Shown piece after piece: positions 2,485 to 45,307 of a stretch of DNA of 64,000 nt. Each line of letters begins with the position of its first letter. Within the stretch, counting starts at the first letter, position 1. A model generated the notes under the pieces. It was not told the DNA's origin and did not search any database. It worked only from the letters and a program-made list of their open reading frames with translations. Location of the stretch: assembly GCA_018656555.1 (NCBI GenBank), contig JABHZQ010000012.1, positions 28,080 to 92,079 on the forward strand, given 5' to 3'. This DNA is from an archaeon. GTDB lineage: Archaea; Nanobdellota; Nanobdellia; SCGC-AAA011-G17; GW2011-AR17. Made by a program: the position numbers and the translations under genes.

Positions 2485-3744
2485 ATGCTACTCAGATCAT
2501 TTGATGTTGTTGTCTTTGTAATTTACTTTATCCTATTATTTCTTTCTGTGTTTTGGCTTACTGTTCTATACACTGTTAGAGATCCAAAAAAACCAAAACT
2601 AAAAGGAGAACTTCCTAAATTCACAGCAATTGTTCCAGCATATAATGAAGAGAACACGATTATTGGTACAGTCCAATCTTTAGTAGCTTTAGACTATCCT
2701 AGAGATAAAAAACAGATTATTGTTGTTAATGATGGTTCTAAGGACAAAACAAGAATTAGGATGGAAGAGTTTATTGCTAAGCATCCAGAGGCAGGAATCA
2801 TTTTAATAAATCAAGAAAATCAAGGTAAGGGAACTGCTTTGAATAATGCACTTAAAATAGCAACAGGAAAGTTTTATGCTTGTTTAGATGCAGATTCTTC
2901 TGTTGAATCTAATGCAGTTAAAGAAATGTTACCTTATTTTGAGGATAAGAATATTGCTGCAGTTTGTCCTTTGTTGAAGATTGATAATCCTCGTTCTATG
3001 ATTGAAAAAGTACAGTGGTATGAATATATTGTTAATATGTTTTACAAATATCTTAATGCAAAGATCAATTGTATTCATGTTACACCTGGACCATTTAGTG
3101 TTTATAGAACTGACTTGATTAAAGAATTAGGCGGTTATGATACAACAACAATTACAGAAGATTTAGAAATTGCAATTAGATTACAAAAATATCAGTACCA
3201 AATAGCTCAAACTTTTGATGCTACTGTGCATACAAAAGGACCCAAAACATGGAAGGCTTTGTTTAGGCAGAGAGTGAGATGGTATAAAGGTTCTGTAGAT
3301 AACTCATTAAAATACAAAAAACTTATGTTTAACAAGAAATATGGGGATTTTGGTTTTATTCGGATGCCTACAATTTTATTAGCAGGTATATTGACTATAA
3401 TCATAAGTGCATTTCTGTTTAGAGAAGTTATAATCAAACTGTACAAAGATCTGCTTTGGATGATTGGGATTAACTTTGATATATGGCCATTGATACAGAA
3501 TTTTTCTTTTGACTTCAGTATTTTGAGTTTGCCGTTCTCTAAATTATTTATTGCAACTCTTTTGATTTCATTAGGATTATTTGTTATGTTTTATTCTTAT
3601 CAAGTTATTGGAGAGAAGATTACAAATCATGGAAGAACATTCTTTTCTTTAATCTTTTATTTATTACTATACTCCTTGTTCTTGTCTACTGTTTGGATGT
3701 ATATTGCTTTTATTTTCATTCTAGGTAAGCAATCAAAATGGTAG
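2485..3744 (+). CDS. GT2 family glycosyltransferase with C-terminal TM helices (Dpm1/AglD-like polyprenyl-phosphate glycosyltransferase)
   Basis: 'FTAIVPAYNEENTI', 'IIVVNDGSKDKT', 'QENQGKGTALN', 'YACLDADS' (DxD) and 'QRVRW' motifs typical of GT2. The C-terminal ~120 aa are hydrophobic helices. Confidence 0.8.
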   Translation: MLLRSFDVVVFVIYFILLFLSVFWLTVLYTVRDPKKPKLKGELPKFTAIVPAYNEENTIIGTVQSLVALDYPRDKKQIIVVNDGSKDKTRIRMEEFIAKHPEAGIILINQENQGKGTALNNALKIATGKFYACLDADSSVESNAVKEMLPYFEDKNIAAVCPLLKIDNPRSMIEKVQWYEYIVNMFYKYLNAKINCIHVTPGPFSVYRTDLIKELGGYDTTTITEDLEIAIRLQKYQYQIAQTFDATVHTKGPKTWKALFRQRVRWYKGSVDNSLKYKKLMFNKKYGDFGFIRMPTILLAGILTIIISAFLFREVIIKLYKDLLWMIGINFDIWPLIQNFSFDFSILSLPFSKLFIATLLISLGLFVMFYSYQVIGEKITNHGRTFFSLIFYLLLYSLFLSTVWMYIAFIFILGKQSKW

Positions 3745-5018
3745 GTAAAAAATGGATTTATGTGTTGATTATCTTTCTAATAGTTGCACTTAGATTTACT
3801 TACATGGATGTTAATCATGAAAATTACTATTGGGATGAAGTTGTTTATTTACATTTGGCAGAGAATATAAACAATGGAGGATATTATTCTCATATTGGTG
3901 AAGAGTTTAGGGCTCCGATGTTTCCTTTTTTATTGTCTTTATTTGGCTATGGACATTTCTTTGTATTTTGTTTAGTGGTTATAGGTATTGTTTTAATGTA
4001 CTTTTTAGGGAAAGAGATATTTAATGAAGAGGTAGGGTTGATCTCTGCTGTTATTTTGGGAAGTATGTCTTTGTATTTTTTCTATAGTTTCAAACTTTTA
4101 ACTGAACCCTTAACACTTATACTTCTTATTGGTGCTATGTTGTTATTGTATAAATATGAGAAGCTGAATAAAAATTATCTTTTATATTTGGGAATGATTT
4201 GTGCTGGCTTGGCTGTTTTGACAAGGTATGTTGCTGGAGCTATGGCTTTAAGCATATTTTTGTATTTGTTGTATAAAAAGAAATGGAAGGAAGTCCTTAT
4301 TTCTGGATTAATCTTCTTGGTTGTATTAAGTCCATTGTTTATTTTAGGAATGTTAAATTATGGTAATCCTTTAGGTATGTTAATTTCAAATTTAGTGGAT
4401 AATACTTCAAAACACGGAGGATTATTTTATTATTTTATACATATCTATCCCATACTGGGTTGGTTTATTCCTGCTGCATTTGTATATGGTTTATTTTCTA
4501 AAGAGAACAAAAAACCAATGTTATTTTTTATTATCACTTATTTTATTGTTTTGGAGATTTTAGCTTTGAAATATGATCGGTTCTTTATTCTTATGTTTCC
4601 TTTTATAGCAGTTATTGCAGCAAAAGGAATCTACAAACTTAACAAGAAATACAAGGTGGGAATGTTATTTTTGGCTATTTGGGTTGTTGTTAATCTTACT
4701 GTGGGTTTAGTCCATATTGATATGGATCGGAGTAATACTGCTCTTTTGGTTAATTCTGCAAGTGATTTTGACTTAGAAGGAAATATGGTTTCTAATTCTC
4801 CAGTTTACTTTAGCTATTTTGGAAATCAAGAAGTGGATTATATCCCCATAGTTGAAACAGATATTAGCCATATTGATTATTTTATAATAGACAATTATCA
4901 TCCAAGAGAAGAAGAGTATTACTTGATTTACACAAATTATATAAAAGAGAATGGAACTTTGGTTTACAACATGACAGAAGGACATAGGGAGGTTTTGGTT
5001 TATGCAACGAAGAGCTAG
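3738..5018 (+). CDS. GT-C fold glycosyltransferase (ArnT/PMT-like, GT39/GT83-type)
   Basis: About 11 predicted TM helices. The first extracytoplasmic loop 'YYWDEVVYLHLAENINNGGYY' resembles the ArnT/PMT N-terminal region. A soluble C-terminal domain follows. Confidence 0.5.
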   Translation: MVGKKWIYVLIIFLIVALRFTYMDVNHENYYWDEVVYLHLAENINNGGYYSHIGEEFRAPMFPFLLSLFGYGHFFVFCLVVIGIVLMYFLGKEIFNEEVGLISAVILGSMSLYFFYSFKLLTEPLTLILLIGAMLLLYKYEKLNKNYLLYLGMICAGLAVLTRYVAGAMALSIFLYLLYKKKWKEVLISGLIFLVVLSPLFILGMLNYGNPLGMLISNLVDNTSKHGGLFYYFIHIYPILGWFIPAAFVYGLFSKENKKPMLFFIITYFIVLEILALKYDRFFILMFPFIAVIAAKGIYKLNKKYKVGMLFLAIWVVVNLTVGLVHIDMDRSNTALLVNSASDFDLEGNMVSNSPVYFSYFGNQEVDYIPIVETDISHIDYFIIDNYHPREEEYYLIYTNYIKENGTLVYNMTEGHREVLVYATKS

Positions 5019-5705: not shown

Positions 5706-6221
5706 TTGATTTCTAATGTTATGAAAAGGTTATTAATTTTGTTTGTATTGTTATTAATTGTAGGTTGTACTGGACCTTTGCCAGCTACTCCACAAGCTTC
5801 TGGACCTTATACTAATGCATATTATGGCTTTTCAATTGTACCTCCTGAAGGTTGGTATATTGCAGAAGCATCTCCAGGAGTTAGTTTTCTAGGAGATTAT
5901 GACTATTTAGCTAATATTGTTATTTCTGTTGATGGGGATGCTACAACTTTGCTTGAATATTGGGCAGAAGAAAAAGATAGATTAGAAAGATCTGAAATTA
6001 TGGTTGGAACTCAAACAGATCAAGAATTAATGACAACTGTAAATGGATACACTGCTATTTCTGTAGATTATACTTATACTTTAATTGAGGAAGTTAAAGC
6101 TAGAGAGATTATAATTGTTGAGAATGGTAATGCTTATCTTATTACTTACCAAACAGAAGTTGATATGTTTGATGAACATCTTCAAATGTTTGAAGACAGT
6201 TTAGTTACTTTTTCTATTTAA
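5706..6221 (+). CDS. Lipoprotein (lipobox), unknown function
   Basis: N-terminus 'MKRLLILFVLLLIVGCTG' is a signal peptide with a lipobox Cys. Confidence 0.5.
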   Translation: MISNVMKRLLILFVLLLIVGCTGPLPATPQASGPYTNAYYGFSIVPPEGWYIAEASPGVSFLGDYDYLANIVISVDGDATTLLEYWAEEKDRLERSEIMVGTQTDQELMTTVNGYTAISVDYTYTLIEEVKAREIIIVENGNAYLITYQTEVDMFDEHLQMFEDSLVTFSI

Positions 6222-6772
6222 GTTAAAACTTCTACTAATGCACTAATCATATCACATAAACCTACTCCAGTTAACCATAAGATTATTGCTGGGAAGATTA
6301 AGTTTAAACCTGCCAATAATACAAGAACAACAACTGGTGCAAAACAAGCAATATTAGCATAATTTTCATCCCCCAATCCCCAAGCAATTGCAGTTGTAAG
6401 TCCAGGTAAAGGTATTGGTATTGCTCCAATGATCGCACCCACAACTAAGAAAAATGGAGTTGCTACAATTTTAAGAATCCAATTTGCTTCTGAACTCCAA
6501 AGGATTGCTACCCACAATATTCCAACTAATATAGCTCCAATAATCATGAAACCAATAAGACCAATTACTGTTTCAAAAAGTGCATCACCAACTAAATCTG
6601 TTAAGGCATCTAGCACATCAACTAAAAAACCAAGTATGAATCTAAATTTTTTTAATAAGAAAACTATTACTGCTGCAGTAACAATAAAACTTAAAGTCCA
6701 ACCCCAATTTTTAACAAAGAAAATTAAGATTACAAAAAATAATCCAAGTGTTTCACCAATACACAAATCCAT
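6218..6772 (-). CDS. Small polytopic membrane protein, unknown function
   Basis: 184 aa with 4-5 predicted TM helices and an acidic loop 'LVDVLDALTDLVGDALFE'. Confidence 0.45.
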   Translation of the reverse strand: MDLCIGETLGLFFVILIFFVKNWGWTLSFIVTAAVIVFLLKKFRFILGFLVDVLDALTDLVGDALFETVIGLIGFMIIGAILVGILWVAILWSSEANWILKIVATPFFLVVGAIIGAIPIPLPGLTTAIAWGLGDENYANIACFAPVVVLVLLAGLNLIFPAIILWLTGVGLCDMISALVEVLT

Positions 6773-6818
6773 ATTTTAGTGAAAAGGTTTAAATATTAAT
6801 AAAGTTATTTATTTTTTA

Positions 6819-8174
6819 ATGAAAAAGAGGATGATTAGAGAAGAAATTCTTGATTTTAATAATAGAGGGATGGCTGATGAAGGGAGTGTTGCTGGTGCTG
6901 TAGGTTCTGCTGCAGGTGGATTTTTTAATAAAGTGAGAACATCAAAAACAAATAAGCACCTTAGATCATTAGGTAGTGAAAGTTCTGATGGTGCACCAAC
7001 AGAAAAAAAACCAATAAAATTATCCACCGTTGTAACAATAATTATTATTGCTCTTTTGCTTCCTATTATGTATGTAACTTTTAATGCTTATTCAGGTACA
7101 GAACAAGGAGAGACTCTTTGGTTAAAAATTTCAGATGCTATTAAAGAGTATAATCCAATTAGTTGGTATGGTGATTTAGTTAGTGAGCAAAAAACATTAG
7201 ATGTTTGGAGTTCTGAGACTAATAGAAGTAGTACTATGAAAGGTATAGAATTGGATGGGATGAGTTCTATTAGTGGGGGGACGATACCTCAAGGTTCACA
7301 ATTTGAAGTTGTTTATGATATTGAATATCATGAGATTGGTTCGGATGGGGTGGAAGATGTTAATTTTGAATGTGTTTTGCAAGATGGAGATGATGAAGAT
7401 ATTGTTCATGGAGAAATTATTCCTCAAAAAACTTTTACCTTAAGAAAGAATGATTTTGTAAGTTGTAGAATTCCTTCAGAATATACTCAAGACTTAGATG
7501 GGTCTTTCTCTGTTGTGGGTTGGTTTGAATTTCCTTTTTCAACAGAAGATGTTACATTAAAAGTCTATTATACTACTTCAGATGTATTTGATCAATTAGT
7601 AGAAGATGATGTTGATTTCTTCGATAGGTATGATATTGATGGTGGATCTCCAAGGGCAGTGTATAATGGGGAACCAGTTAGGGTTGCTATAGGTGCTACT
7701 GCTTCAAATCAAGATCAACCAGTAATTGTAGGTAGTGATAGATCTTCCTTCCCCATTTTAGGAATTCATTTAGAGAATGAATGGGCAGGTGAAGTTGTAG
7801 ATATAACAGACATGAAAGTATACTTACCTGAAGGTGTTGAGATTAACGAAGAATTATCTTTAAATCCAGATAGTTTTAGTTGTCCTTTTGAACATTTGGG
7901 AAAATCTGATGGGAAGAATGTTTATAGATTATATAGACCAACAATGGAGGAAATGTTTAAATCTTTGATTGATGCAGAGATTCCTATTTTAGGAGATTCA
8001 AAGTATAGTGAAAATGAAAGGAATTTTAATTGTTGGTTGGATGTAGCTCCTGAATTTGTTGGAAGTTCATTATATAAAGTAGATGAATATAGTGTTAGTT
8101 TAGATTATCTTTATAGAGTAAATGATAAAGAAGATCAAGTGGTTATAAGGGCACCAGGAGAGGTAGTTACATGA
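6819..8174 (+). CDS. Type II membrane / cell-surface protein (cytoplasmic N-terminal tail, one TM, large acidic ectodomain)
   Basis: ~65-aa N-terminal tail, a TM 'LSTVVTIIIIALLLPIMYV', then an acidic ectodomain poor in Lys. Forms a tight operon with the next two lipoprotein genes. Confidence 0.5.
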   Translation: MKKRMIREEILDFNNRGMADEGSVAGAVGSAAGGFFNKVRTSKTNKHLRSLGSESSDGAPTEKKPIKLSTVVTIIIIALLLPIMYVTFNAYSGTEQGETLWLKISDAIKEYNPISWYGDLVSEQKTLDVWSSETNRSSTMKGIELDGMSSISGGTIPQGSQFEVVYDIEYHEIGSDGVEDVNFECVLQDGDDEDIVHGEIIPQKTFTLRKNDFVSCRIPSEYTQDLDGSFSVVGWFEFPFSTEDVTLKVYYTTSDVFDQLVEDDVDFFDRYDIDGGSPRAVYNGEPVRVAIGATASNQDQPVIVGSDRSSFPILGIHLENEWAGEVVDITDMKVYLPEGVEINEELSLNPDSFSCPFEHLGKSDGKNVYRLYRPTMEEMFKSLIDAEIPILGDSKYSENERNFNCWLDVAPEFVGSSLYKVDEYSVSLDYLYRVNDKEDQVVIRAPGEVVT

Positions 8175-9112
8175 AAAGAATAATTTTATTGTTATGTTTA
8201 TTATTGTTAGTAAGTTCTTGTGGCTTTAGTCCAAGTGGTGATTCTGAACAAGAAATAACTGGTTGTCCATATTCATGTAGATCGGGAAGTAGTGGGGTTG
8301 AATTGGAAATCTTAAATCCAGATACTAGTATAGGGGATTCAGAAAAAAGAATTATTCCTGCTGGTTATGAATTCATTCCATCTTTAATTGTGCATGATGA
8401 AGGAATGAGCGATGCGGATGGAGAGGTTTGTGTTACTGGTTTAGACTCTAGTACTTTTTCAGGTGTTGGAGGATGTGATTGTGCTGATTATTATATTGTA
8501 GTTGAAGAAGAGGAAGATTATTTTTTGAATGATCAAGTGGTTGATATATTTCCAGGATATGGTGTTGCTAGTGGTACCGAAGGAGATTACCTTATGACTT
8601 TTATTAATAGATATAAGTATAAGACTTATGCAGTTGTTGATGCTTGTTTAAAACAAGATCCAGCAGATAAAGAAGGTTGCTCTTCTAGTGGAAGTATTTT
8701 GGATGTTTCATCTAGTGCACCATTAACTGTTAAAAGTGTAGATCAAACAATTACAAGACCCGGACAGGGAACTAATGCGATTAATTTAATTCTAACTTAT
8801 GAAGTAAGTGCAAAAGGCAATGCTGGTTCTGGTTTGATAAATGATGAAGTTTTATTTAGTGGATTGTGTTATGATCCTAATGATGAAGATCCTTGGATTG
8901 ATGTTAAATTTGTTATTTTAAACCAAGAGTATAGTTGTGAATCAATACAACTAATAGCTGGAGAGGGAACTGGAAGTTGTATTGCTGATTCAATTATTAC
9001 TGAAGGTAGCTCTGGAGAATATCTATTTGAAGATCAAAGTACTCACCAAGGATACTTAGAATTTAGTTATTTATGGGAAGATATAGAGACTGTAGAGTTT
9101 AGAGTACAATAG
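8171..9112 (+). CDS. Cys-rich lipoprotein, unknown function
   Basis: 'MKRIILLLCLLLLVSSCGFS' lipobox, many Cys, acidic. Overlaps the upstream gene by 4 nt (ATGA). Confidence 0.5.
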   Translation: MKRIILLLCLLLLVSSCGFSPSGDSEQEITGCPYSCRSGSSGVELEILNPDTSIGDSEKRIIPAGYEFIPSLIVHDEGMSDADGEVCVTGLDSSTFSGVGGCDCADYYIVVEEEEDYFLNDQVVDIFPGYGVASGTEGDYLMTFINRYKYKTYAVVDACLKQDPADKEGCSSSGSILDVSSSAPLTVKSVDQTITRPGQGTNAINLILTYEVSAKGNAGSGLINDEVLFSGLCYDPNDEDPWIDVKFVILNQEYSCESIQLIAGEGTGSCIADSIITEGSSGEYLFEDQSTHQGYLEFSYLWEDIETVEFRVQ

Positions 9113-9161
9113 AAAGTTTAATAAATAAATATTGCCATTTTAAATCAAAGGAGGGTTTGCT

Positions 9162-10082
9162 ATGAAACTAAAAAATTATACTATTGCTGTTATTTTACTT
9201 GGAATCTTATTCATAAGTGGATGTGGGGGTCAGACTACAACTACAACTGAAGGTTATTATGGTTGTTTTTCTGGAGAGACTTCAATGATTGATGCTTATT
9301 TCTATGAATATGCACCTTTTAGTTCTGAAGCAAGTCCATATAGACCTGGAGAGGAGATTGATGTTAATGTTATTTTAGAAAATAAAATGCCTGAAGATCT
9401 AGATGCTGGAAAGGTTATGATTAGATTGAAAGGTGATGCTGCAATTGAATCCATTTTTACAGGTTCTAGTATTGTAGAAAATCCATCATTATATTCTATT
9501 GATAAAGATACTTGCACTGTTTCTGATGAAGAGGTTGAATTAGGTCCTCTTCTTTATGAACCTGAATTGACTACTAAAATTACTAAAGAAATTGCAGGTA
9601 CTTATTGTTATGAACATCCTGTAGAAGTTCATGGTTATTTATTCTTTACAGAAGATCCTACTGAAGTGGGTGTAAATTTACCATCTGGTGCAAATCCACC
9701 ATCTGGTGTACAAGTTACTGCAATTGAGCAAGATCCAGTTGATGTTTCTGGTGATGGTCAAACTGCTACATTAAGATTTAAAGTTTATATCCAAAATGTA
9801 GGAACTGGAACAATTGTAGATACTTTGGATGATTGTTTTGCCTATAGAGAATTAGGATATAGAGAAACCTTGAATGTAGAAGTTGATACTGCTTATGATG
9901 AGCAGGATTGTACTGAAGAGATAAGGTTATCTAAGGATGCACAAGAAGATGTAATTACTTGTGAAGTTACTGGAATTGATCCAAATAATCTTGGACCTCA
10001 ATCAAGTGAATTAACTGTTACTTTGAATGGTTTTGCTTATGAGGATGAGATTACTGGTGTAGATATCTGGTTAGAACCTTAA
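9162..10082 (+). CDS. Lipoprotein, unknown function
   Basis: 'MKLKNYTIAVILLGILFISGCGGQ' lipobox; an acidic extracytoplasmic protein. Confidence 0.5.
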   Translation: MKLKNYTIAVILLGILFISGCGGQTTTTTEGYYGCFSGETSMIDAYFYEYAPFSSEASPYRPGEEIDVNVILENKMPEDLDAGKVMIRLKGDAAIESIFTGSSIVENPSLYSIDKDTCTVSDEEVELGPLLYEPELTTKITKEIAGTYCYEHPVEVHGYLFFTEDPTEVGVNLPSGANPPSGVQVTAIEQDPVDVSGDGQTATLRFKVYIQNVGTGTIVDTLDDCFAYRELGYRETLNVEVDTAYDEQDCTEEIRLSKDAQEDVITCEVTGIDPNNLGPQSSELTVTLNGFAYEDEITGVDIWLEP

Positions 10083-10158
10083 TTTTTCTTTTATTTATTT
10101 TATATTAAAGAAATTCTTATAAAGGGTAGCAATATTGGGTTGATTGAGGGAAGATTTT

Positions 10159-11145
10159 ATGAATGGATTAAAATATGAAGATATTCTAGCAAAAATAGAA
10201 AAAGAGAAAGGTTTGTCTAAGACTGAAGTTGAAGATAAGATTAAAGAGAAACTAAAACAGTTATCAGATCTTATTTCTAAAGAGGGTGCAGCCCATATTA
10301 TAGCTAATGAATTAGGTGTTAAGTTATTTGATGTAGGCATTAAGAAAGCTAAAGTTAACCAATTGAATACTATGTTAAAAGGTGTGGAATTGGTGGGGAA
10401 GGTTATTAATATTTATGAGATAAGAGAATTTAAAGTTGCTGCCAGAGAAGGGAGAGTTGTTAATATGTTGGTGGGGGATGAGACGGGTTCTTGTAGATTG
10501 GTTTTATGGGATGAAAAACAGATCAAAGAAGTTGAGGAAGGAAAGCTTAAGGTTGGAGATGTTGTAAGAGTTAGTAATTGTTATGTTAAAGAAAATAATA
10601 GAGGTTATATGGAACTTCATATGGGTAAGAATGGTGAATGGGTGATAAATCCAGAAGGGGAAAGTATTGAAGTAAAAAGTTTTTCTGAGGCTGAAAGGAA
10701 AAATATTAAAGATTTGAAAGAGAATGATAATGCTACACTTGTAGGTACATTAGTTCAAGTTTTTGAACCTAGATTCTATGATTCTTGTCCAGAATGTAGT
10801 AAGAAAGTAGAATACAAGGATGATGGATTTTATTGTGCGGCACATGGCAAGGTGGAGAGTAAACCCCAAGGAGTTTTGAATCTTGTTTTTGATGATGGTA
10901 CAGATAATATTAGAATTGTGTGCTTTAGAGATAATGTTAACAAAGTTCTTGAAGTTGAGGATGTTGTTGATTTGAAAGAAAATCATGAGAAGTTCAATGA
11001 AATCCAAAGAAAAGTAGCAGGTAGACAATTAGAAATTTCTGGAAGAGTTACTAAAAATGATTTCTTTGATAGATTAGAGATGGTTGCAAATTCTGTTAAG
11101 GAAGCAAATCCAAAGGCTTTAGCTATGGAGTTAAAGGAAAATTGA
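10159..11145 (+). CDS. rpa: Replication protein A (archaeal RPA/SSB, OB fold plus C-terminal Zn ribbon)
   Basis: N-terminus '…LSKTEVEDKIKEKLKQLSDLISKEGAAHIIANELGV' is typical of archaeal RPA. An OB fold 'RVVNMLVGDETGSCRLVLWDEK' follows, then a Zn ribbon 'CPECSKK…YCAAHGK'. The ORF track begins at an upstream TTG; the first ATG is at 10159. Confidence 0.65.
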   Translation: MNGLKYEDILAKIEKEKGLSKTEVEDKIKEKLKQLSDLISKEGAAHIIANELGVKLFDVGIKKAKVNQLNTMLKGVELVGKVINIYEIREFKVAAREGRVVNMLVGDETGSCRLVLWDEKQIKEVEEGKLKVGDVVRVSNCYVKENNRGYMELHMGKNGEWVINPEGESIEVKSFSEAERKNIKDLKENDNATLVGTLVQVFEPRFYDSCPECSKKVEYKDDGFYCAAHGKVESKPQGVLNLVFDDGTDNIRIVCFRDNVNKVLEVEDVVDLKENHEKFNEIQRKVAGRQLEISGRVTKNDFFDRLEMVANSVKEANPKALAMELKEN

Positions 11146-11166: not shown

Positions 11167-12429
11167 TTAAGATGTGATTTCTATTTCTCCATAAGTATAA
11201 TCTTCGTGGATATCTAGATTATACATTGTTTGGTAATCTAATGGAATTATTGATACTCCGTTGTTATTCCCCCCATTAGCAGAGAATAAATAACTATTTT
11301 GTACTGTTAATTCTCTTGATTGATATTCATCTCTAAATATGTATGCGGTTAATCCTTCAGCAGTATAGTAGGAAGGATTATCCAGAGGGTCTAGTCCTGC
11401 TAGAATATCATACATCACATCTTGATAGGGATCGGCATCAACTAAAGGAAAGACTATCAAATCACCATAGGAATTTTCTAGTTGGGTAATTGAATCATCA
11501 TCACCTAAATCTCCACAAATTACAGGTATTATTGTAAATATATTTCCATGTAAATCTATTAGATCATAAGCTTGTATTGTTGGTAATGCTTCCATTCTAA
11601 TATCTTCACATAGGGCTGGTTCTTCATTACATCCTATGTCTCCTTCTATGTAAAAGTCATAAGGTGAAGATTTTCTTTGTTTACCAATAATATCTCCATT
11701 TCTATCTAGGATCAATAAGGTATTGTAAGAAATATCATAACCATTTACTACAGATCTTTCTGCAACAGTTCCTAATACTATGTACACATGATATTGTTGT
11801 GCAAGATTTTGTATGGAACTAATATAATCTACTAATTGATCACTCTCTTGTGTTCCAATTGAAGAAATAGTGCAAGGAGTAGTTTGGCAATCTACAATAA
11901 CTGGATTATCTTGGTGAGTTTGGTCTTGATAAAATATGTACTCTGGTGTTAATATCAAATCTAATTCTTGGTGGTTTGTTAGTACTGAATCAAATTTTGC
12001 TTCTAAGTTAGTAAATGAATAATCATTATTAGATAAATTTATACCTGCTATTTTTACTAAGGGTGTTGTACATGCCCCATTTTCACAAATTGTTCCTGTT
12101 GGACAATTAGATCTATGAAATTGCATCCATTCACTGTCAAAACAGAAATATTCTACTATCTGACCTTGATAGGGTCCCCAATTTATGCACCTATCAGTAA
12201 ATGTTTTAGCCCCTGCAACTCCATATCTGCCTGAAGTTGTTCCTTGGTTTTCTAGATCTAATCCACCATCTGTTTCTATACAAAGGATGTTTTCATTCTG
12301 AATTCCATTTTTAATTAAATCAAAAATATTTAAACCAATTATTTGATTATCTGATAGACCAAATAATCCAGCCGATACTAATGGAAGAGATAATATGATT
12401 ATGAACAGAACTAAAATCTTCTTTTTCAT
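11167..12429 (-). CDS. Secreted Cys-rich protein with a C-terminal nitrilase-superfamily (CN-hydrolase) domain
   Basis: Signal peptide 'MKKKILVLFIIILSLPLVSA'; a Cys-rich N-terminal module. The C-terminal half carries an ordered E/K/C triad in nitrilase-like context ('LILTPEY', 'YNTLLILDRNGDIIGKQRKSSPYDF', 'FTIIPVICGDL'). Confidence 0.5.
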   Translation of the reverse strand: MKKKILVLFIIILSLPLVSAGLFGLSDNQIIGLNIFDLIKNGIQNENILCIETDGGLDLENQGTTSGRYGVAGAKTFTDRCINWGPYQGQIVEYFCFDSEWMQFHRSNCPTGTICENGACTTPLVKIAGINLSNNDYSFTNLEAKFDSVLTNHQELDLILTPEYIFYQDQTHQDNPVIVDCQTTPCTISSIGTQESDQLVDYISSIQNLAQQYHVYIVLGTVAERSVVNGYDISYNTLLILDRNGDIIGKQRKSSPYDFYIEGDIGCNEEPALCEDIRMEALPTIQAYDLIDLHGNIFTIIPVICGDLGDDDSITQLENSYGDLIVFPLVDADPYQDVMYDILAGLDPLDNPSYYTAEGLTAYIFRDEYQSRELTVQNSYLFSANGGNNNGVSIIPLDYQTMYNLDIHEDYTYGEIEITS

Positions 12430-12518: not shown

Positions 12519-13997
12519 ATGGGACTAAAGTTTGGTACAAGTGGTTTGCGAGGACTTGTTACTGAGATGACTGATAAGGAGTGTTATGTTAACACTAAAG
12601 GATATATTAAATTTCTTGAGTCTATTAAGGGTGTTAAAGATAGAGTAGCTATTGCAGGTGATCTAAGAGAGAGTACTAGGAGAATTCTTAAGGCTGTTGC
12701 AAAAGCTATAATAGATTGTGGTTATGAGGTTATTTATTGTGGGAGAATCCCCACCCCAACTTTAACTTATTATGCTATGAAAAATAATATCCCTAGTGTT
12801 ATGGTTACTGGAAGCCATATCCCTTTTGATAGAAATGGAGTAAAGTACATTAAAATTGAAGGTGAAGTTTTGAAAGAAGATGAAAAACCGATTTTAGATT
12901 CTGTTGAAAAAGTAAGATTAGAAGAAAGTTATTTGTTTGATGAGAAGGATATGTTTAAAGAATTTGATATTAATTTAATTGAAAATAAAGATGCTAAAAA
13001 AAATTATATTGAAAGATATGTTAATTTCTTTGGAAATTGTTTAATTGGTAAAAAGATTGTATTGTATGAACATACTGCTGTGGGAAGAAATCTTATCAAG
13101 GAGTTGTTTATGGAAATGGGGGCAGAAGTTGTTTGTGAAGAAAGATCTAGTGAATTTGTTCATATTGATACTGAGAAAGTTTCAGGTATTGTTGAAGCTA
13201 AATTAAAGAACTTTTCAATGAAACATAATCCAGATGCTATTATTTCTACAGATGGAGATAGTGATAGACCCCTTCTTGCCGATGAAAATGGGAGATTTTT
13301 ACCTGGAGATAAGTTAGGAGTATTATGTTGTAAGTTTTTGAAACCAGATTTTGCTGCTATTACAGTTAGTTCTAATGATGCAGTTTGTAATTCTTTAGAA
13401 AGTATGGGAATTAAAGTTGTAAAAACTAGAATTGGTTCTCCTTATGTTATTGATGCCATGAATAAGGCTGAAGGTAAAACAGTTAGTTGGGAAGCTAATG
13501 GTGGATTTTTAACTGGTTGTGATTTTATTATTCAAGATAAAAAATTAGAAGCTCTACCCACTAGAGACGCAGTGTTACCTTTAGTTATTGCTTTGGTATT
13601 GGGTAGAAAGTTATCTGAAGTTATTGAAGAAACATTTAGAGGTTATGATTCTTACTCAGAAGCTAGTTATATTGAAAATAATGATGAAGGTTGTGAACAG
13701 TATACTGCTGAAATGGGTAAAAGGATTGTTAAGAGTTTAACCCCTCAAGGAAAAGAAGTTGATTTTAGATTGAAAGCAAGACTAGAGAGTTATTTTTCTA
13801 AAGAGATTGTAAAAGTTAATTATGTTGATGGTTTTAGAGTTTATTTTTCTGATGGTGAAGTTATTCATTTAAGGCCTTCAGGTAATGCTCCGCAATTTAG
13901 GATTTATTCTGTAGGAAGAAGTCCTGAAAGAGCAAGAGAGATTATTGAAGAGACAAAAAAGATTATACCTTTGATAATAAAAGATTTTATTAAGTAG
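12519..13997 (+). CDS. Phosphohexomutase (phosphoglucomutase/phosphomannomutase family)
   Basis: 'KFGTSGLRG' N-terminal motif, active-site loop 'TGSHIP', and 'TDGDSDR' metal-binding loop typical of alpha-D-phosphohexomutases. Confidence 0.7.
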   Translation: MGLKFGTSGLRGLVTEMTDKECYVNTKGYIKFLESIKGVKDRVAIAGDLRESTRRILKAVAKAIIDCGYEVIYCGRIPTPTLTYYAMKNNIPSVMVTGSHIPFDRNGVKYIKIEGEVLKEDEKPILDSVEKVRLEESYLFDEKDMFKEFDINLIENKDAKKNYIERYVNFFGNCLIGKKIVLYEHTAVGRNLIKELFMEMGAEVVCEERSSEFVHIDTEKVSGIVEAKLKNFSMKHNPDAIISTDGDSDRPLLADENGRFLPGDKLGVLCCKFLKPDFAAITVSSNDAVCNSLESMGIKVVKTRIGSPYVIDAMNKAEGKTVSWEANGGFLTGCDFIIQDKKLEALPTRDAVLPLVIALVLGRKLSEVIEETFRGYDSYSEASYIENNDEGCEQYTAEMGKRIVKSLTPQGKEVDFRLKARLESYFSKEIVKVNYVDGFRVYFSDGEVIHLRPSGNAPQFRIYSVGRSPERAREIIEETKKIIPLIIKDFIK

Positions 13998-14017: not shown

Positions 14018-14476
14018 ATGATGTTTAAGACCCACTTGGTGATTGCACTTTTGGTTGGTATTGTTCTAGTTCAATGGTTAAATCCAATTTATCCTTTAGT
14101 GTTTTTGGCTGTTCTTTGTTTAGCTGCAGCTTTACCGGATATAGATACTCCAAAAAGTAAAGTTGGGAAAAAAGTGGGGTTCCTTTCTAATATTTTGAAC
14201 TACACTCTGGGTCATAGAGGAGTTATGCATAGTCTTTACATACCTGCAGGATTCTTATTATTAAGCATACTCTTGGGTTTTCCATTGATAGGATATGCTT
14301 TTGCTTTTGGGTATGTAATTCATTTACTATCTGATATGCTGACTAAAGATGGTGTTCATTTACTTTACCCTTTTTTTCATGTAAAGGGTTTTATTAGTAC
14401 TGGAGGTATTTGGGAAACTGTGGTTTTCATTTTAGCTTTAGGTTTAATTGTTTTGAAAGTTAGTGCTTTCTTTTAG
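14018..14476 (+). CDS. Membrane-bound metal-dependent hydrolase (DUF457/YdjM-like)
   Basis: Small polytopic protein with conserved 'LPDIDTP' and 'HLLSD' His/Asp motifs. Confidence 0.45.
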   Translation: MMFKTHLVIALLVGIVLVQWLNPIYPLVFLAVLCLAAALPDIDTPKSKVGKKVGFLSNILNYTLGHRGVMHSLYIPAGFLLLSILLGFPLIGYAFAFGYVIHLLSDMLTKDGVHLLYPFFHVKGFISTGGIWETVVFILALGLIVLKVSAFF

Positions 14477-15015
14477 AATATATCTTGAATAAGAGGTAAC
14501 CATTTCTCTTGATGTTCATAAGCAAATACTCCTGCTGCAAATAGTAGTCCATATTTTGAGTAGTTAACAGCTCTTCTTTTTACAGATGGTTTATACTGTT
14601 GTTTTGATCTATCTCTAACTATCTTAGAAAGAGAAGCTTTTTTGTGATTTTTAGGTAAAAGGAATCTTGATTTTCTATATAATTGCTTTAATTTGGGCCC
14701 ATTTATGAGTTTTACACCATATTTATGGGCATCATGGTAGCATCTACCTTCAAAATCAGAGGTTGTCACCATTACCCTTTCTGATGGGTTAAAAGTCTCA
14801 CAAACGCCCACAAACTTCATAAAATCAGCATAGGATACAAGGGAAGAGTAGTTCTTACATTCAACAAAAGAGGGCCTAATAAGCCCATAGACTAGATCTA
14901 TCTGAGCCCTATAGCTCCCTCTCTTGTATGTTTTATTTCTCCTTACTCTTTTTTTCCCTAGATCTTTAAAGAGGTGCTCTGTGAAGATCTCTAGGGAATC
15001 TCCCTTTTTCTTCAT
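14473..15015 (-). CDS. Restriction-endonuclease (Mrr-cat, PD-(D/E)xK) domain protein with a basic C-terminal tail
   Basis: 'GDSLEIFTEHLFKDLG', 'AQIDLVYG', 'VECKNY' and 'VMVTTSDFEGRCYHDAHKYGVKLING' match the Mrr catalytic-domain pattern (D…ExK). Confidence 0.45.
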   Translation of the reverse strand: MKKKGDSLEIFTEHLFKDLGKKRVRRNKTYKRGSYRAQIDLVYGLIRPSFVECKNYSSLVSYADFMKFVGVCETFNPSERVMVTTSDFEGRCYHDAHKYGVKLINGPKLKQLYRKSRFLLPKNHKKASLSKIVRDRSKQQYKPSVKRRAVNYSKYGLLFAAGVFAYEHQEKWLPLIQDIF

Positions 15016-19211: not shown

Positions 19212-19838
19212 ATGGTATCTGATGAAAAGGTAATGGAAATTGCAAAGGCGCTGCAGGGTTTGAGCCCTGAAGAGCAACAAGATAAATTCAATGAGTTAGT
19301 TCAGGGTTTGAGCCCTGAAGAGCAAAAAGAGGTTATTGAGAAATTAACTGGTGGTAATGGTGGAGGGGGAGAGTGTCCTTTTTGTGGTATGGTAGAGGGA
19401 AAAATTCCTGTGAAGAAGGTTTATGAAGATAATAAAGTAATGGCAATTTTGGATATTAATCCAGCTACAAAAGGTCATGTATTAGTTTTTCCAAAGAAAC
19501 ATGTTGCACTTATGACTCAACTTGATGAAACTATTGCAGGACATTTGTTTGATGTAGCCAATAAATTAAGTGGTATTTTATTCGAAGAGCTTGGTGCTCA
19601 AGGAACAAATGTTGTTGTTTCTAATGGTGCTATTGCTGGTCAGAAGGCTCCACACGCATTGATTAATATTATACCTCGGTTCGAAGGAGATAAAGTTGCT
19701 ATTAGTTGGCAAGGTGAGAAAGCAGAGGAAGGAGATCTTGAGGAAGTGAGAGAGAAGATCTCTAATCGGGCCAAAAATATATCTATGAGTGAACCAAAAG
19801 AAGAGAAATTTGTTGAAGAAGAACCTAGAATCCCATAA
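19212..19838 (+). CDS. HIT-family protein with a degenerate histidine triad and an N-terminal duplicated 16-aa motif
   Basis: 'CPFCGMVEGKIPVKKVYEDNKVMAILDINPATKGHVLVFPKKHV' is a classic HIT N-terminal half. The triad position reads 'APHALINIIPR' instead of HxHxHxx. Confidence 0.55.
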   Translation: MVSDEKVMEIAKALQGLSPEEQQDKFNELVQGLSPEEQKEVIEKLTGGNGGGGECPFCGMVEGKIPVKKVYEDNKVMAILDINPATKGHVLVFPKKHVALMTQLDETIAGHLFDVANKLSGILFEELGAQGTNVVVSNGAIAGQKAPHALINIIPRFEGDKVAISWQGEKAEEGDLEEVREKISNRAKNISMSEPKEEKFVEEEPRIP

Positions 19839-20673
19839 TTGATACTAAAATAGTAACGATTGTTGCTATTAACATTGCAGGGACAAAAGGAATACCTATC
19901 TTTACCCATGCATTTCTTATTTTATTCTTTTTCATTAATTTAATATCTTTTAGAGTTAAGCAAGGGTGTTTTTTTGAAATTAAAACTTTATTTTTATAAT
20001 AAACATCTTTTGCTAACCAATCTCCTTCAGTTACTCTTTCTAATGGAAGTTGCTTGATAAACGATAGTTTCTCTACAATCTTTACAAATATACTAATATA
20101 GAAATAAGCCATTAGGAAAAGAGCTAAGATAATTAGTAATGCTTTTATTGTTAAGATAGGAATTAGTATACTTGAAATTAAAATCATAACTGCTATCATA
20201 AGTATTATGTTCCTTAATCTTCTTTTTTTTATTAATTCTTTTTTTAGTAAGGGGTTTGCTTTCTTTCTATTTTTAAAATATAGTACTATTGCAAAAATTA
20301 ACCCATAAAGACCTCCAATGATTATTACATTTAAAAAAAGTATTAGCAAGAAGGGCAAAGTTAGATTGGAAAAATAAGGTGCTGTTCCAAATGCAGCCCC
20401 AAATCCCATCAAAAGCTTTGCATCTGCTCCACCCCATTGTTTTGTTCTATACATTATAAGAGCTATTATGAACATTATTCCAAACCCTAGTAATCCATAT
20501 AGGAAGAAAGTGTACTCTCTTGTGATTATAGAATGTATTAATCTTATGACTAAAGCTATGACAATTAAGCCGATTGTTAGGTTATCTGGTACTTCTCTGG
20601 TTCTTAGATCCCATATAGAGGATATAATCAAAATAAGTAGTGCAACTGAAATTAAGATAATGTCTGTGATCAT
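19825..20673 (-). CDS. A24-family aspartic peptidase (prepilin/preflagellin peptidase, PibD/FlaK-like) with a C-terminal extension
   Basis: Polytopic protein. The first Asp motif is 'SSIWDLRTREVPDNL' and the second is 'KQWGGADAKLLMGFG' (GGxDxKL). Confidence 0.6.
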   Translation of the reverse strand: MITDIILISVALLILIISSIWDLRTREVPDNLTIGLIVIALVIRLIHSIITREYTFFLYGLLGFGIMFIIALIMYRTKQWGGADAKLLMGFGAAFGTAPYFSNLTLPFLLILFLNVIIIGGLYGLIFAIVLYFKNRKKANPLLKKELIKKRRLRNIILMIAVMILISSILIPILTIKALLIILALFLMAYFYISIFVKIVEKLSFIKQLPLERVTEGDWLAKDVYYKNKVLISKKHPCLTLKDIKLMKKNKIRNAWVKIGIPFVPAMLIATIVTILVSIMGF

Positions 20674-23395: not shown

Positions 23396-24571
23396 ATGAA
23401 TAGGAAGGGAGTACAGTCTGCAATTGAAGTATCAATTCTAATTTTTATTATTGCTGGAATTTTAGTAGGTTATGTTATACTAATTCCTGAAGACCAAAGA
23501 AATGAACTATTAGATGATGATGATGATACTTCTACCGACGGAACAGAAAGTACTTCTACAGATTCAGGAACTACTTTATTATCTGCAAGTCCGGGTGAAG
23601 TTGAACCAAGAAAATCAGAAACAATGATTTATGGTTTAGATCCTACCAAGTTATATTCAAAGATTGAAACTGAAACTCAGACTCTTGCAAATTCTTTAAC
23701 TATTTCTAGGAGTCTTATCCATAATGACTATAAGAACATCTATTTTGATATAGATAGAGATAGTTTGGATAAACTAGAATTATTATTATTAATTGTAGAG
23801 TCTAAAGGCAAGTTAAAAGTGGAAATAAATGATCAAGAGATTTATTATGATGAATTAACTAGTAATGAGTTACCATTAGAAATCCCTAAAGCTTATTTAC
23901 AAGATGAAGATAATATTTTGAAATTAACTTCAAACTCACCAGGTTGGAGGTTATTTTCTTCCAATTACTATACAATACAAGATGTTGAATTGATTAAAGA
24001 CTATTTAGTAGAGGATACTTCTAAAATAAAGACATTTAGTGTTGATGAGGTAAGCACATTAAAGAGTGCTACTCTAAGTTATTATATCACATGTAATACT
24101 CCTGAGGAGGGTAGATTAACCATTACACTAAATGAAAGAGAAGTGTTTGATGATGATATTTTTTGTGAGTATTTAGAAAAAAGAGAATTAGTATTAGATG
24201 ATGATTATTTGAGAACTACAAATACATTAATCTTTGAGATTGATGAAGGAGATTATAATCTAGATGAAATAGAGGTTGCATTGCTATCTCAAGGTAGAGA
24301 TTATCCAACCTATACTTTTGAATTAGATTCTGATGATTATGAAGACGTATCTTCTGGGGAAAAAGAGGTGTTCCTAGAGGTGAGTTTTGGCGATGACTCA
24401 AGTCATAAAGAAGCTACTATCTATGTACAAGAATACAGTTTTAACATAAATACCTATAGTACTGATTACGAGAAAGAGATAAGTAGCTATGTAGACAATG
24501 GAGCCAATACAATAAAAATACAACCAAGTGTTACTTTTGATATTGAGAACTTTAAAGTGGTCTTAAAATGA
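23396..24571 (+). CDS. Surface protein with an N-terminus resembling an archaeal class III (type IV pilin-like) signal peptide
   Basis: 'MNRKGVQSAIEVSILIFIIAGILVGYVILIP' resembles KG followed by QxSxE(Y/F)-type prepilin signals. An acidic linker 'DDDDDTSTDGTESTSTDSGTT' follows, then a large ectodomain. Confidence 0.4.
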   Translation: MNRKGVQSAIEVSILIFIIAGILVGYVILIPEDQRNELLDDDDDTSTDGTESTSTDSGTTLLSASPGEVEPRKSETMIYGLDPTKLYSKIETETQTLANSLTISRSLIHNDYKNIYFDIDRDSLDKLELLLLIVESKGKLKVEINDQEIYYDELTSNELPLEIPKAYLQDEDNILKLTSNSPGWRLFSSNYYTIQDVELIKDYLVEDTSKIKTFSVDEVSTLKSATLSYYITCNTPEEGRLTITLNEREVFDDDIFCEYLEKRELVLDDDYLRTTNTLIFEIDEGDYNLDEIEVALLSQGRDYPTYTFELDSDDYEDVSSGEKEVFLEVSFGDDSSHKEATIYVQEYSFNINTYSTDYEKEISSYVDNGANTIKIQPSVTFDIENFKVVLK

Positions 24572-43415: not shown

Positions 43416-44270
43416 ATGAAAAGCATGTCAGAATTGGCTGAAAAGCTGGATAAACGAATGCAAAAATTAACAAAGCATGATAATGTTCACTTTACAGATA
43501 GGGGAAATTCTGCTATTTTTATGGCACTTTCAATTGCAAAACAAATTAATAATAAACCCAAAATATTGATACCTGATCAAGGGGGTTGGTATTCATATAA
43601 GCGATATCCCAAATACTTAGGTTTAGAGATTGTTGAAGTTAAAACCGATTATGGAGTTATTGACTTAAAAGATTTGAAGAAAAAGTTGAAAAAAGATGAG
43701 ATCGGTTGTTTTATTTTTAGTTCCTTTGCAGGTTATTTCGCTGAGCAACCATTAAGGAAGATTAAAACTATTTGTAAGAAAAAGAATTGTTTGATAATAG
43801 AAGATTCTTGTGGCTCTATTGGAGACACTAAATTATGTAATGGAAAGTATTCTGATATGACTGTAGGTAGTTTTGGGAACTGGAAACCAATATCTTATGG
43901 TTATGGTGGGTGGATCTCTGTTCGAGAGAAAAGATGGTTGGATAATGCTAGAGAGGTTATGAGTATGTGTAAAGTTCATGAGAGATTCTATAAAGATATT
44001 ATGAAGTTTATTAGAAAGAACAAATTTAAGAAATTGATAAAGTTAAATAAAATTGTTAAGGAAGACTTGAAAGATTTTGATATTATTCATAGAGATAAAA
44101 GAGGATTAAATGTGGTTGTAAAGTTTGATCCTAAAATTACTGAATATTGTAAAGAGAAAGGATTTCAGCATATTCTTTGTCCAAATTATATTAGAGTTAA
44201 TGAAATGGCTGTTTCTATTGAGTTAAAGAGGTTAAATTTAGATAGGATTAAAGAGTTAACTTCAAACTAG
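43416..44270 (+). CDS. PLP-dependent enzyme fold protein, DegT/DnrJ/EryC1-like (short)
   Basis: 'RKIKTICKKKNCLIIEDSCGSIG' and 'MTVGSFGNWKPISYGYGGWISV' resemble the DegT-family motifs around the PLP-binding Lys. At 284 aa it is shorter than typical members. Confidence 0.35.
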   Translation: MKSMSELAEKLDKRMQKLTKHDNVHFTDRGNSAIFMALSIAKQINNKPKILIPDQGGWYSYKRYPKYLGLEIVEVKTDYGVIDLKDLKKKLKKDEIGCFIFSSFAGYFAEQPLRKIKTICKKKNCLIIEDSCGSIGDTKLCNGKYSDMTVGSFGNWKPISYGYGGWISVREKRWLDNAREVMSMCKVHERFYKDIMKFIRKNKFKKLIKLNKIVKEDLKDFDIIHRDKRGLNVVVKFDPKITEYCKEKGFQHILCPNYIRVNEMAVSIELKRLNLDRIKELTSN

Positions 44271-44318: not shown

Positions 44319-44882
44319 ATGAAAAATAAAATAATTATAGGAATAATCCTTTTGTCTTTAGTTTTTGTTGTAGGCTGTGCTCAAGAAGAACAGGTGCAAC
44401 AATACAGTTTAGGAGATTTAGATTATAAACTCGGAGAAGTTGTTGTTGGTTTTCCCGAAGGAATGGATAAAACAGAAGCTCAAGCTTTAATCGATTCTTA
44501 TGAATTAGAACTTGAATCTTGGTCTCCAAGAGATTTTACTACTATTAATCTGGTTGTTAATGAAGAATATCCTTCTGTATTAGAAAATCATGAAAGAATT
44601 GGTAGTTTAGAACAAATAGAGGGAAATGAGTATACTGTTTATTTTTATATTGAAGATTTTAATAATTTAAAACTTTCTGAAGTTGAGGAAATACTCTCTG
44701 AATTTGATGTTGAGATTATAGAGGATGAACATTACACAGAAGTTATGTCTGTAGAATGGGGAGTTTTAATTGTTTCAGAAGGTTCTGAGGTTGAATGGGT
44801 TAATACTCTTCAAGAGGATCCAAACTTTAAATATGTAGAACTAAACTATCTAGTTGAGTTGGAGGATGATGTTTTAGAATGA
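44319..44882 (+). CDS. Acidic lipoprotein, unknown function
   Basis: 'MKNKIIIGIILLSLVFVVGCAQ' lipobox. Confidence 0.45.
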   Translation: MKNKIIIGIILLSLVFVVGCAQEEQVQQYSLGDLDYKLGEVVVGFPEGMDKTEAQALIDSYELELESWSPRDFTTINLVVNEEYPSVLENHERIGSLEQIEGNEYTVYFYIEDFNNLKLSEVEEILSEFDVEIIEDEHYTEVMSVEWGVLIVSEGSEVEWVNTLQEDPNFKYVELNYLVELEDDVLE

Positions 44883-45307
44883 ATAAAATATATTTTTTAA
44901 GTTTTTTATTGATTTTCTTAGTTGGTTGTACTTGTTCTCAGGGTTTTCTTACCTACACTGGAGAAGAATTAGAACTTGATGAATTTGAAATAAGAAAAGA
45001 AAAAGTAGAAGTTAATCTTAATTTATTAGAAGAAGATAGAGTTAATATTGACCTTTTTGGTACAGAATATGTTATGATTAAAGAGAAAGTGGAATATAAT
45101 GAATTGAGTGATTCTTATTCTTGGCATGGAGAGTTAGAAGGGGAGTCATCTTCTTCTATAATTATAGTCTATGATGAAGACTCACTTGTAGGTAATATTT
45201 GGAACTATCTCCCAGGGGCAGTGTATACATACAAAATAGAAGGGAGTTTAGAAGAGGGATTTAGTTTGTCCGAAATTGATCAAAGTTTGATTACTGGTGA
45301 GGATTAA
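44879..45307 (+). CDS. Acidic lipoprotein, unknown function
   Basis: 'MNKIYFLSFLLIFLVGCTCSQG' lipobox; overlaps the upstream gene by 4 nt. Confidence 0.45.
   Translation: MNKIYFLSFLLIFLVGCTCSQGFLTYTGEELELDEFEIRKEKVEVNLNLLEEDRVNIDLFGTEYVMIKEKVEYNELSDSYSWHGELEGESSSSIIIVYDEDSLVGNIWNYLPGAVYTYKIEGSLEEGFSLSEIDQSLITGED

Follow-up and report, generated by a model that had tools for sequence, protein, structure and literature searches.

A predicted exported amidase of the nitrilase superfamily with a six-cysteine N-terminal module in an archaeal genome

Within a 64-kb window of archaeal DNA (64,000 nucleotides of contig JABHZQ010000012.1, i.e. the whole stretch analysed here, with a G+C content of about 31%), the reverse strand carries at positions 11167-12429 a complete open reading frame (ORF), running from an ATG start to the stop codon at 11167-11169 and encoding a protein of 420 amino acids (aa), which is predicted to be exported and to end in a carbon-nitrogen hydrolase (CN-hydrolase) domain of the nitrilase superfamily. 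The identical protein is named 'hypothetical protein HOD38_01690 [archaeon]' at NCBI, and one of its relatives is named 'predicted amidohydrolase' at the Joint Genome Institute (JGI). The gene is monocistronic and the sole gene on its strand locally, with a gap of 89 bp to the divergent gene of a phosphoglucomutase/phosphomannomutase (PGM/PMM; 12519-13997) and of 21 bp to the end of a convergent gene encoding an RPA-like OB-fold protein (10144-11145). An earlier reading of this DNA, referred to below as the original prediction, had described the motifs LILTPEY, YNTLLILDRNGDIIGKQRKSSPYDF and FTIIPVICGDL in this ORF, and all three are present in the translation. The features recognised along the gene are as follows, all on the reverse strand:

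11167..12429, reverse strand: entire ORF (420 aa and the stop codon)
12370..12429, reverse strand: residues 1-20, predicted Sec-type signal peptide or N-terminal membrane anchor (sequence features and hydropathy scan)
12058..12300, reverse strand: residues 44-124, 6-Cys all-beta module
11170..12057, reverse strand: residues ~125-420, nitrilase-superfamily (CN-hydrolase) catalytic domain (profile, alignment and model)
11941..11943, reverse strand: codon of Glu163 in the TPEY motif, proposed general base (conservation and 2uxy alignment)
11872..11889, reverse strand: Cys181-x4-Cys186, clade-specific beta-hairpin insertion (alignment and model)
11671..11673, reverse strand: codon of Lys253 in the GKQRK motif, proposed catalytic Lys (conservation and 2uxy/Nit3 alignment)
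11608..11631, reverse strand: Cys267-x6-Cys274, clade-specific loop after the catalytic Lys (pair recurring in closer relatives)
11515..11517, reverse strand: codon of Cys305 in the ICGD motif, proposed nucleophile (conservation and 2uxy alignment)

Both the 6-Cys module and the catalytic domain are present in one copy each, with no paralogue of either elsewhere in the 64-kb window.

The C-terminal domain is a genuine nitrilase-superfamily domain. The search of Pfam family PF00795 (CN_hydrolase) that the original prediction had proposed gives 32.4 bits against a gathering score of 23.2 (E 7.6e-8), the match spanning only profile positions 57-114, namely the central third of the model; the same family is matched independently by 33 of the 38 aligned relatives, several of them over positions ~15-180. 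Searched against the Protein Data Bank (PDB), the family profile, i.e. the profile of the relatives' alignment A1, retrieves yeast Nit3 (5.5e-9), aliphatic amidases (1.2e-6 and weaker), formamidases and one nitrilase. An AlphaFold2 model computed with alignment A1 reaches a mean predicted local distance difference test score (pLDDT) of 96.0 and a predicted template modelling score (pTM) of 0.94, exhibits the four-layer alpha-beta-beta-alpha sandwich fold and, in a Foldseek comparison with the PDB, has nitrilase-superfamily proteins for all of its top 50 matches, each at probability 1.0. The profile match and the fold model agree on the proposed CN-hydrolase domain, the extent of which has nevertheless to be redrawn from residues 150-330 to about 125-420. 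Regarding its place in the superfamily, sequence identity to the solved members is 12-22%, and the protein falls far below the cut-off of every curated NCBIfam equivalog; those of aliphatic amidase and formamidase (NF009802, NF009803) are not reached either, the former with 14.9 bits against 427, and each of these two models returns only weak matches in 9 of the 38 relatives. The clade stands roughly equidistant from all characterised branches of the superfamily.

The residues expected of a nitrilase-type active site are conserved to a large extent, as counted over 47 near-full-length family domains: Glu163 is kept in 46, Cys305 in 44 and Lys253 in 35 of them. The Glu of PEY, the Lys of RK and the Cys of IC align to Glu59, Lys134 and Cys166 of the aliphatic amidase of Pseudomonas aeruginosa (2uxy), in an alignment that is piecewise and with residue positions counted from alignment offsets, and Lys253 also aligns to the Lys of the HRK motif of Nit3. 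In the model, each of the three residues comes right after a beta-strand, with Cys305 set between a strand and a helix, and the nucleophile Cys is followed across the family by Gly-Asp or Gly-Glu, which agrees with the C-x-E/D pattern of the superfamily. Glu163, Lys253 and Cys305 are accordingly named here as the proposed catalytic triad at homologous positions. The ordered Glu/Lys/Cys triad of the original prediction is present, then, but its value as a signature of Lnt, an apolipoprotein N-acyltransferase, is not upheld, as the superfamily as a whole shares it.

The distribution of cysteines is the one expected for an exported thiol enzyme. Besides the six invariant Cys of the N-terminal module, the 11 Cys of the protein comprise two pairs located in insertions of the catalytic domain and the lone Cys305, the only one without a conserved partner. 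Cys181 and Cys186 are both present in 34 of the 47 relatives, with modelled strands at 61-64 and 70-74 (model numbering), and Cys267 with Cys274 recurs in the closer relatives, so that each of these pairs likely forms a disulfide. Together with three probable disulfides in the N-terminal module, this would make five likely disulfides and one free thiol.

At the N-terminus, the first 20 residues (MKKKILVLFIIILSLPLVSA) are arranged like the n, h and c regions of a Sec signal peptide: MKKK, then ILVLFIIILSLPLV, then VSA ahead of a putative cleavage before G, the residues at -3 and -1 being small. Hydropathy was scanned on the Kyte-Doolittle scale in 19-residue windows with a threshold of >= 1.6: windows reaching the threshold begin nowhere but at residues 1-9, the highest value of all other windows being 1.4, which leaves a single hydrophobic segment in the protein. 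Judged from these features, this segment is predicted to be a Sec-type signal peptide, as the original prediction had it, or else an uncleaved N-terminal membrane anchor. An N-terminal hydrophobic segment is also found in 55 of the 71 relatives that start with Met, six of the 55 having a lipobox, and the relatives devoid of it are mostly the weakest matches or apparently truncated gene calls. In P0002, one of the two nearest relatives, a class III signal peptide is tentatively suggested by a sub-threshold Pfam match (17.1 bits vs. 23.7). As for the mature protein (11170-12369, reverse strand), it is strongly acidic, with 60 Asp and Glu for 15 Lys and Arg, and N131-L-S is its single N-glycosylation sequon; the negative charge may be related to a saline habitat, to the binding of cations or to repulsion between surfaces.

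A word-indexed homology search returned one relative only, and an exhaustive HMMER search over 1.84 billion representatives returned 201 matches at E <= 1e-3; among the best 150 of these 201 matches, about 76 cluster representatives have the C-terminal domain in common with HOD38_01690 and about 77 the N-terminal module. The named members come from metagenome-assembled genomes (MAGs) of Pacearchaeota and Nanoarchaeota/Woesearchaeota, and the more distant ones from a gammaproteobacterial MAG (L003), a Bacteriovoracaceae MAG (L004) and a partial Flavobacteriaceae contig, all of them being annotated as hypothetical. Many relatives are fused to other modules, those of the larger ones being extracellular: P0034 has dockerin, cohesin, He_PIG and a PQQ-type propeller, P0028 has Peptidase_C25, P0031 has Big_2 and CarboxypepD_reg, P0015 has a Laminin_G_3 lectin, P0062 has PKD and Ig domains, and P0087 and P0133 have a BNR_4 propeller with the sorting tail of the type IX secretion system (T9SS). 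On these predictions, the family is a rare, uncharacterised and consistently exported branch of the nitrilase superfamily. HOD38_01690 itself is then probably an exported thiol amidase, i.e. a carbon-nitrogen hydrolase of this rare exported branch, which would be either released from the cell or tethered to it by its N-terminus. With regard to the acyltransferase or amidase acting on surface proteins or on the host envelope that had been put forward originally, the amidase is the predicted activity favoured here, and the Lnt-type acyltransferase is abandoned for the reasons given further below.

From the chemistry of the superfamily, Cys305, activated by Glu163, would attack the carbonyl of a non-peptide amide, with Lys253 stabilising the tetrahedral intermediate and its oxyanion; the amine or ammonia would depart to leave a thioester acyl-enzyme, which water would then hydrolyse. 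More tentatively, the five likely disulfides, three in the N-terminal module and two in the insertions of the catalytic domain, may brace the protein outside the cell, and the N-terminal module could be a spacer or a binding module that keeps the enzyme attached to a surface or polymer. Judging from the lectin, Ig, dockerin, propeller and peptidase modules to which relatives are joined, an amide of some extracellular polymer, of a glycoconjugate or of a scavenged metabolite is the probable substrate.

Several observations weigh against this reading. TM-scores to the solved members of the superfamily are only ~0.5 and about 210 of the 304 modelled residues superpose on known members; the surroundings of the active site must therefore have diverged, and the remaining ~90 residues correspond to clade-specific insertions. 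Nothing is shared between the gene neighbourhoods of HOD38_01690, P0002, P0003, P0007 and P0009. The sequence is compatible with hydrolysis as well as with acyl transfer. Besides, 12 sequences are without the Lys, mainly in one sub-clade with the motifs GKHRMY and GKHSAA, and the second Glu of the superfamily's E-K-E-C tetrad is not assignable, as the highest frequency of an acidic residue at a fixed offset after the Lys is 38% (at +5), the candidates in HOD38_01690 being Asp258, Glu262 and Glu269/270. The last two observations would suit a catalytically inactive binding protein that merely retains the fold. Such a pseudo-enzyme is very improbable, however, given that HOD38_01690 and its two nearest relatives, P0003 (49% identity) and P0002 (40%), retain Glu, Lys and Cys, that Glu and Cys are near-invariant family-wide and that Cys305 is left unpaired with all other Cys accounted for. 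In the Lys-less sub-clade itself (P0005, P0006, P0007, P0009, P0011, P0012, P0020 and P0026), Met, Ala, Ser or Thr replaces the Lys, and Glu and Cys are retained along with another Lys, located three residues upstream in the GKH motif, P0012 being without either Lys; this could be a case of Lys migration or of loss of activity.

The Cys-rich N-terminal module already recognised in the original prediction is borne out by an alignment of 62 sequences, in which Cys 50, 81, 96, 109, 115 and 120 all fall in invariant columns and probably form three disulfides. Its consensus is a unit of ~75 residues, C-t-D-S-D-G-G...G-T...T-D-x-C...E-Y-Y-C...C-P-x-G-x-x-C-x-x-G-A-C, which is present in 1-10 tandem copies in many other secreted proteins (relatives such as P0021, P0052, P0044 and P0077). 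The module matches no Pfam family and has no significant structural neighbour, which makes it a candidate for a new family of extracellular domains. Among its top 7 weak structural neighbours, 5 are the 6-Cys chitin-binding modules of CBM14/peritrophin; both CBM14/peritrophin-A and the present module are small (~60-80 aa), all-beta, extracellular and often in tandem, with six Cys. As neither a sequence nor a structural match to CBM14 is significant, this likeness is a lead only.

In line with this likeness, HOD38_01690 might be an envelope enzyme directed at a host or at glycans, with the 6-Cys module binding a glycan of the N-acetylglucosamine (GlcNAc) type or a host surface and the CN-hydrolase domain removing or transferring N-acyl groups on polymers or lipids of the host envelope, as an aid to attachment or nutrient gain. 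The Laminin_G_3 lectin and BNR_4 propeller domains of relatives go in this direction, together with the presence of the family in DPANN MAGs and in one Bacteriovoracaceae MAG, both groups being known for surface-attached or predatory lifestyles. Lifestyle is here deduced from taxonomy alone, however, and no binding residues were identified in the module, so that this alternative is considered unlikely. A bolder version is distinctly unlikely, namely a weapon or harvesting tool displayed at the surface, in which the module, as a new 6-Cys glycan-binding domain of CBM14-like shape, would dock the enzyme on a host or particle for the removal or transfer of N-acyl groups on envelope glycans or lipids; if true, no prokaryotic CN-hydrolase apart from Lnt would be known to carry out such a chemistry outside the cell.

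The enzymes of the nitrilase superfamily are overwhelmingly cytoplasmic, the known exceptions being the membrane-embedded Lnt and AatD and the eukaryotic vanins and biotinidase. The soluble amidases to which the exported amidase proposed here can best be compared, i.e. AmiE (2uxy, 2plq), AmiF (5g3o), the omega-amidase Nit2/Nit3 and the Staphylococcus aureus protein 3p8k, are cytoplasmic and without signal peptides, whereas HOD38_01690 is predicted to be exported and adds two Cys-pair insertions, ~90 extra residues and a fused 6-Cys module. Vanin-1 and biotinidase (branch 4 of the superfamily) are eukaryotic and extracellular, the vanins being secreted or anchored by glycosylphosphatidylinositol (GPI) and having a C-terminal base domain; HOD38_01690 has instead an unrelated N-terminal 6-Cys module and no branch-specific sequence match. 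By analogy with these enzymes, an exported amidase could serve salvage, freeing outside the cell a vitamin or nutrient that an archaeon with a reduced genome would take up; the products may be pantothenate cleaved from pantetheine, biotin cleaved from biocytin, or ammonia and acids obtained from small amides. The named relatives found in MAGs of Pacearchaeota and Nanoarchaeota, lineages that have been described as metabolically reduced, would fit with this role. Salvage is nonetheless improbable: no vanin or biotinidase family is matched in Pfam or NCBIfam, the vanin base domain is absent and the structure resembles this branch no more closely than the others, the neighbourhoods compared contain no linked transporter gene, and the lectin, dockerin and Ig fusions suggest polymer or surface targets over small solutes.

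The remaining extracytoplasmic enzymes, Lnt and its homologue AatD, share with HOD38_01690 a CN-hydrolase domain outside the cytoplasm (as predicted for the latter) with an E-K-C triad, as well as weak one-way matches to the lnt hidden Markov model (HMM), and the original prediction had drawn from this analogy a link to lipoprotein maturation. HOD38_01690 would then be an Lnt-like N-acyl (or N-acetyl) transferase maturing the lipobox lipoproteins of the archaeon. TIGR00546 (lnt) is indeed the commonest weak NCBIfam match of the family (16 of the 38 relatives, best E 7.8e-7), five lipobox proteins are encoded in the window, and for the N-terminal acetylation reported in archaeal lipoproteins no enzyme has yet been found (PMC12462473). 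Against this, Lnt has eight transmembrane (TM) helices and with them a route to the lipid donor (PMC11573676), compared with the single hydrophobic segment here, and no relative exhibits an Lnt-like architecture. The protein scores 18.2 bits on TIGR00546 for a cut-off of 132.9 and, in the search of the PDB with the family profile, no Lnt chain appears at E <= 1, with four other branches matched. With the family profile and the filters off, hmmsearch gives Escherichia coli Lnt no score; soluble YafV of the same species obtains only -0.1 bits, indicating that the E. coli proteins are too distant, so that this test alone shows only the absence of a special affinity for Lnt. The probability of 0.25% given by hhalign for the family alignment against E. 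coli Lnt is uninformative because the template is one single sequence. Being one-directional and far below the cut-off, the matches to the lnt HMM are read as the generic CN-hydrolase signal of a deep model, and no closer affinity to Lnt than to other branches was found in sequence and structure. Furthermore, a stabilising Glu is located eight residues after the catalytic Lys in Lnt (E343) and in AatD (E286; PMC7943197), a position occupied by Ile261 in HOD38_01690 and acidic in only 23% of relatives.

The distribution of the family argues in the same direction. With about 76 cluster representatives among the best 150 of 201 matches, it is far too rare for a general maturation enzyme, lipoproteins being prevalent in DPANN and Euryarchaeota (PMC12462473). 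The dockerin, lectin or T9SS fusions of relatives suit degradative or adhesive exoproteins, and lipobox genes are not linked to the family in the other genomes whose neighbourhoods were compared. Some relatives are encoded in bacterial MAGs (L003 for Gammaproteobacteria and L004 for Bacteriovoracaceae), and Gram-negative bacteria normally have an Lnt of their own. A maturation enzyme of this type is extremely unlikely, and the Lnt-type acyltransferase is rejected on the grounds of architecture, of the curated cut-off, of the rank in the structural comparison, of the reciprocal test with the profile, which failed, and of the lack of a Glu at Lys+8. The analogy that had been drawn with Lnt, and with it the link to lipoprotein maturation, does not survive the single hydrophobic segment, the sub-cut-off and non-reciprocal match to TIGR00546 and the absence of this Glu.

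The five lipobox N-termini reported at 5706, 8171, 9162, 44319 and 44879 are all present, but a lipoprotein-rich neighbourhood is weak evidence for the function of HOD38_01690, the lipobox genes belonging to distinct transcription units on the opposite strand and the neighbours of relatives being unrelated. Lipobox proteins are reportedly prevalent across DPANN (PMC12462473), which makes five of them in 64 kb unremarkable. The statement that archaeal lipoprotein-maturation enzymes are essentially unknown is also out of date, AliA and AliB having been identified in 2024-25 as the first archaeal lipoprotein lipidation enzymes, with AliA present in DPANN (PMC12462473). The finding of the CN-hydrolase is without bearing on archaeal lipoprotein maturation.

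As for the novelty of the predicted exported amidase, the protein is recognisably a CN-hydrolase already tagged PF00795 by pipelines, hence of a known kind; what has not been described before is the consistent export of the clade, its Cys-pair insertions and its fusion to an unclassified 6-Cys module. A search of the available literature found nothing specific on exported prokaryotic CN-hydrolases beyond Lnt and AatD, nor on nitrilase-superfamily proteins of DPANN. The substrate of this exported clade, once found, would add an extracellular activity to the nitrilase superfamily, and might reveal in what way archaea with reduced genomes handle extracellular compounds that contain amides.

Upstream of the convergent RPA-like OB-fold gene, the forward strand carries a cell-envelope or glycan block (2485-5018 and 5706-10082). 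It comprises a family 2 glycosyltransferase (GT2) with a chitin-synthase-like match (2485-3744; Chitin_synth_2, E 2.4e-14), directly followed by a membrane glycosyltransferase of the PMT_2/Glyco_transf_22 type (3738-5018), and then three lipobox ORFs without Pfam match, at 5706-6221, 8171-9112 (12 Cys) and 9162-10082 (7 Cys). Any tie between this block and the weakly CBM14-like module of the CN-hydrolase is pure speculation. The other two lipobox ORFs are small and adjoin each other at 44319-45307 on the forward strand with a 4-base overlap, next to a DegT-family aminotransferase gene (43416-44270); the first of the pair weakly matches a family resembling the N-terminal prodomain of fervidolysin (E 4e-5).

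Further along the window, a Peptidase_A24 gene, i.e. of a class III signal or prepilin peptidase, is located on the reverse strand at 19825-20673 (E 6.1e-16), and near it on the forward strand (23396-24571) a 391-aa ORF without Pfam match has an N-terminus, MNRKGVQSAIEVSILIFIIAGILVGYV, resembling a class III pilin-type signal peptide. Beyond the PGM/PMM gene, a YdjM-family membrane protein is encoded on the forward strand (14018-14476) and adjoins, on the reverse strand (14473-15015), an ORF resembling Mrr_cat restriction endonucleases, whose C-terminal extension is basic and whose tail is hydrophobic.

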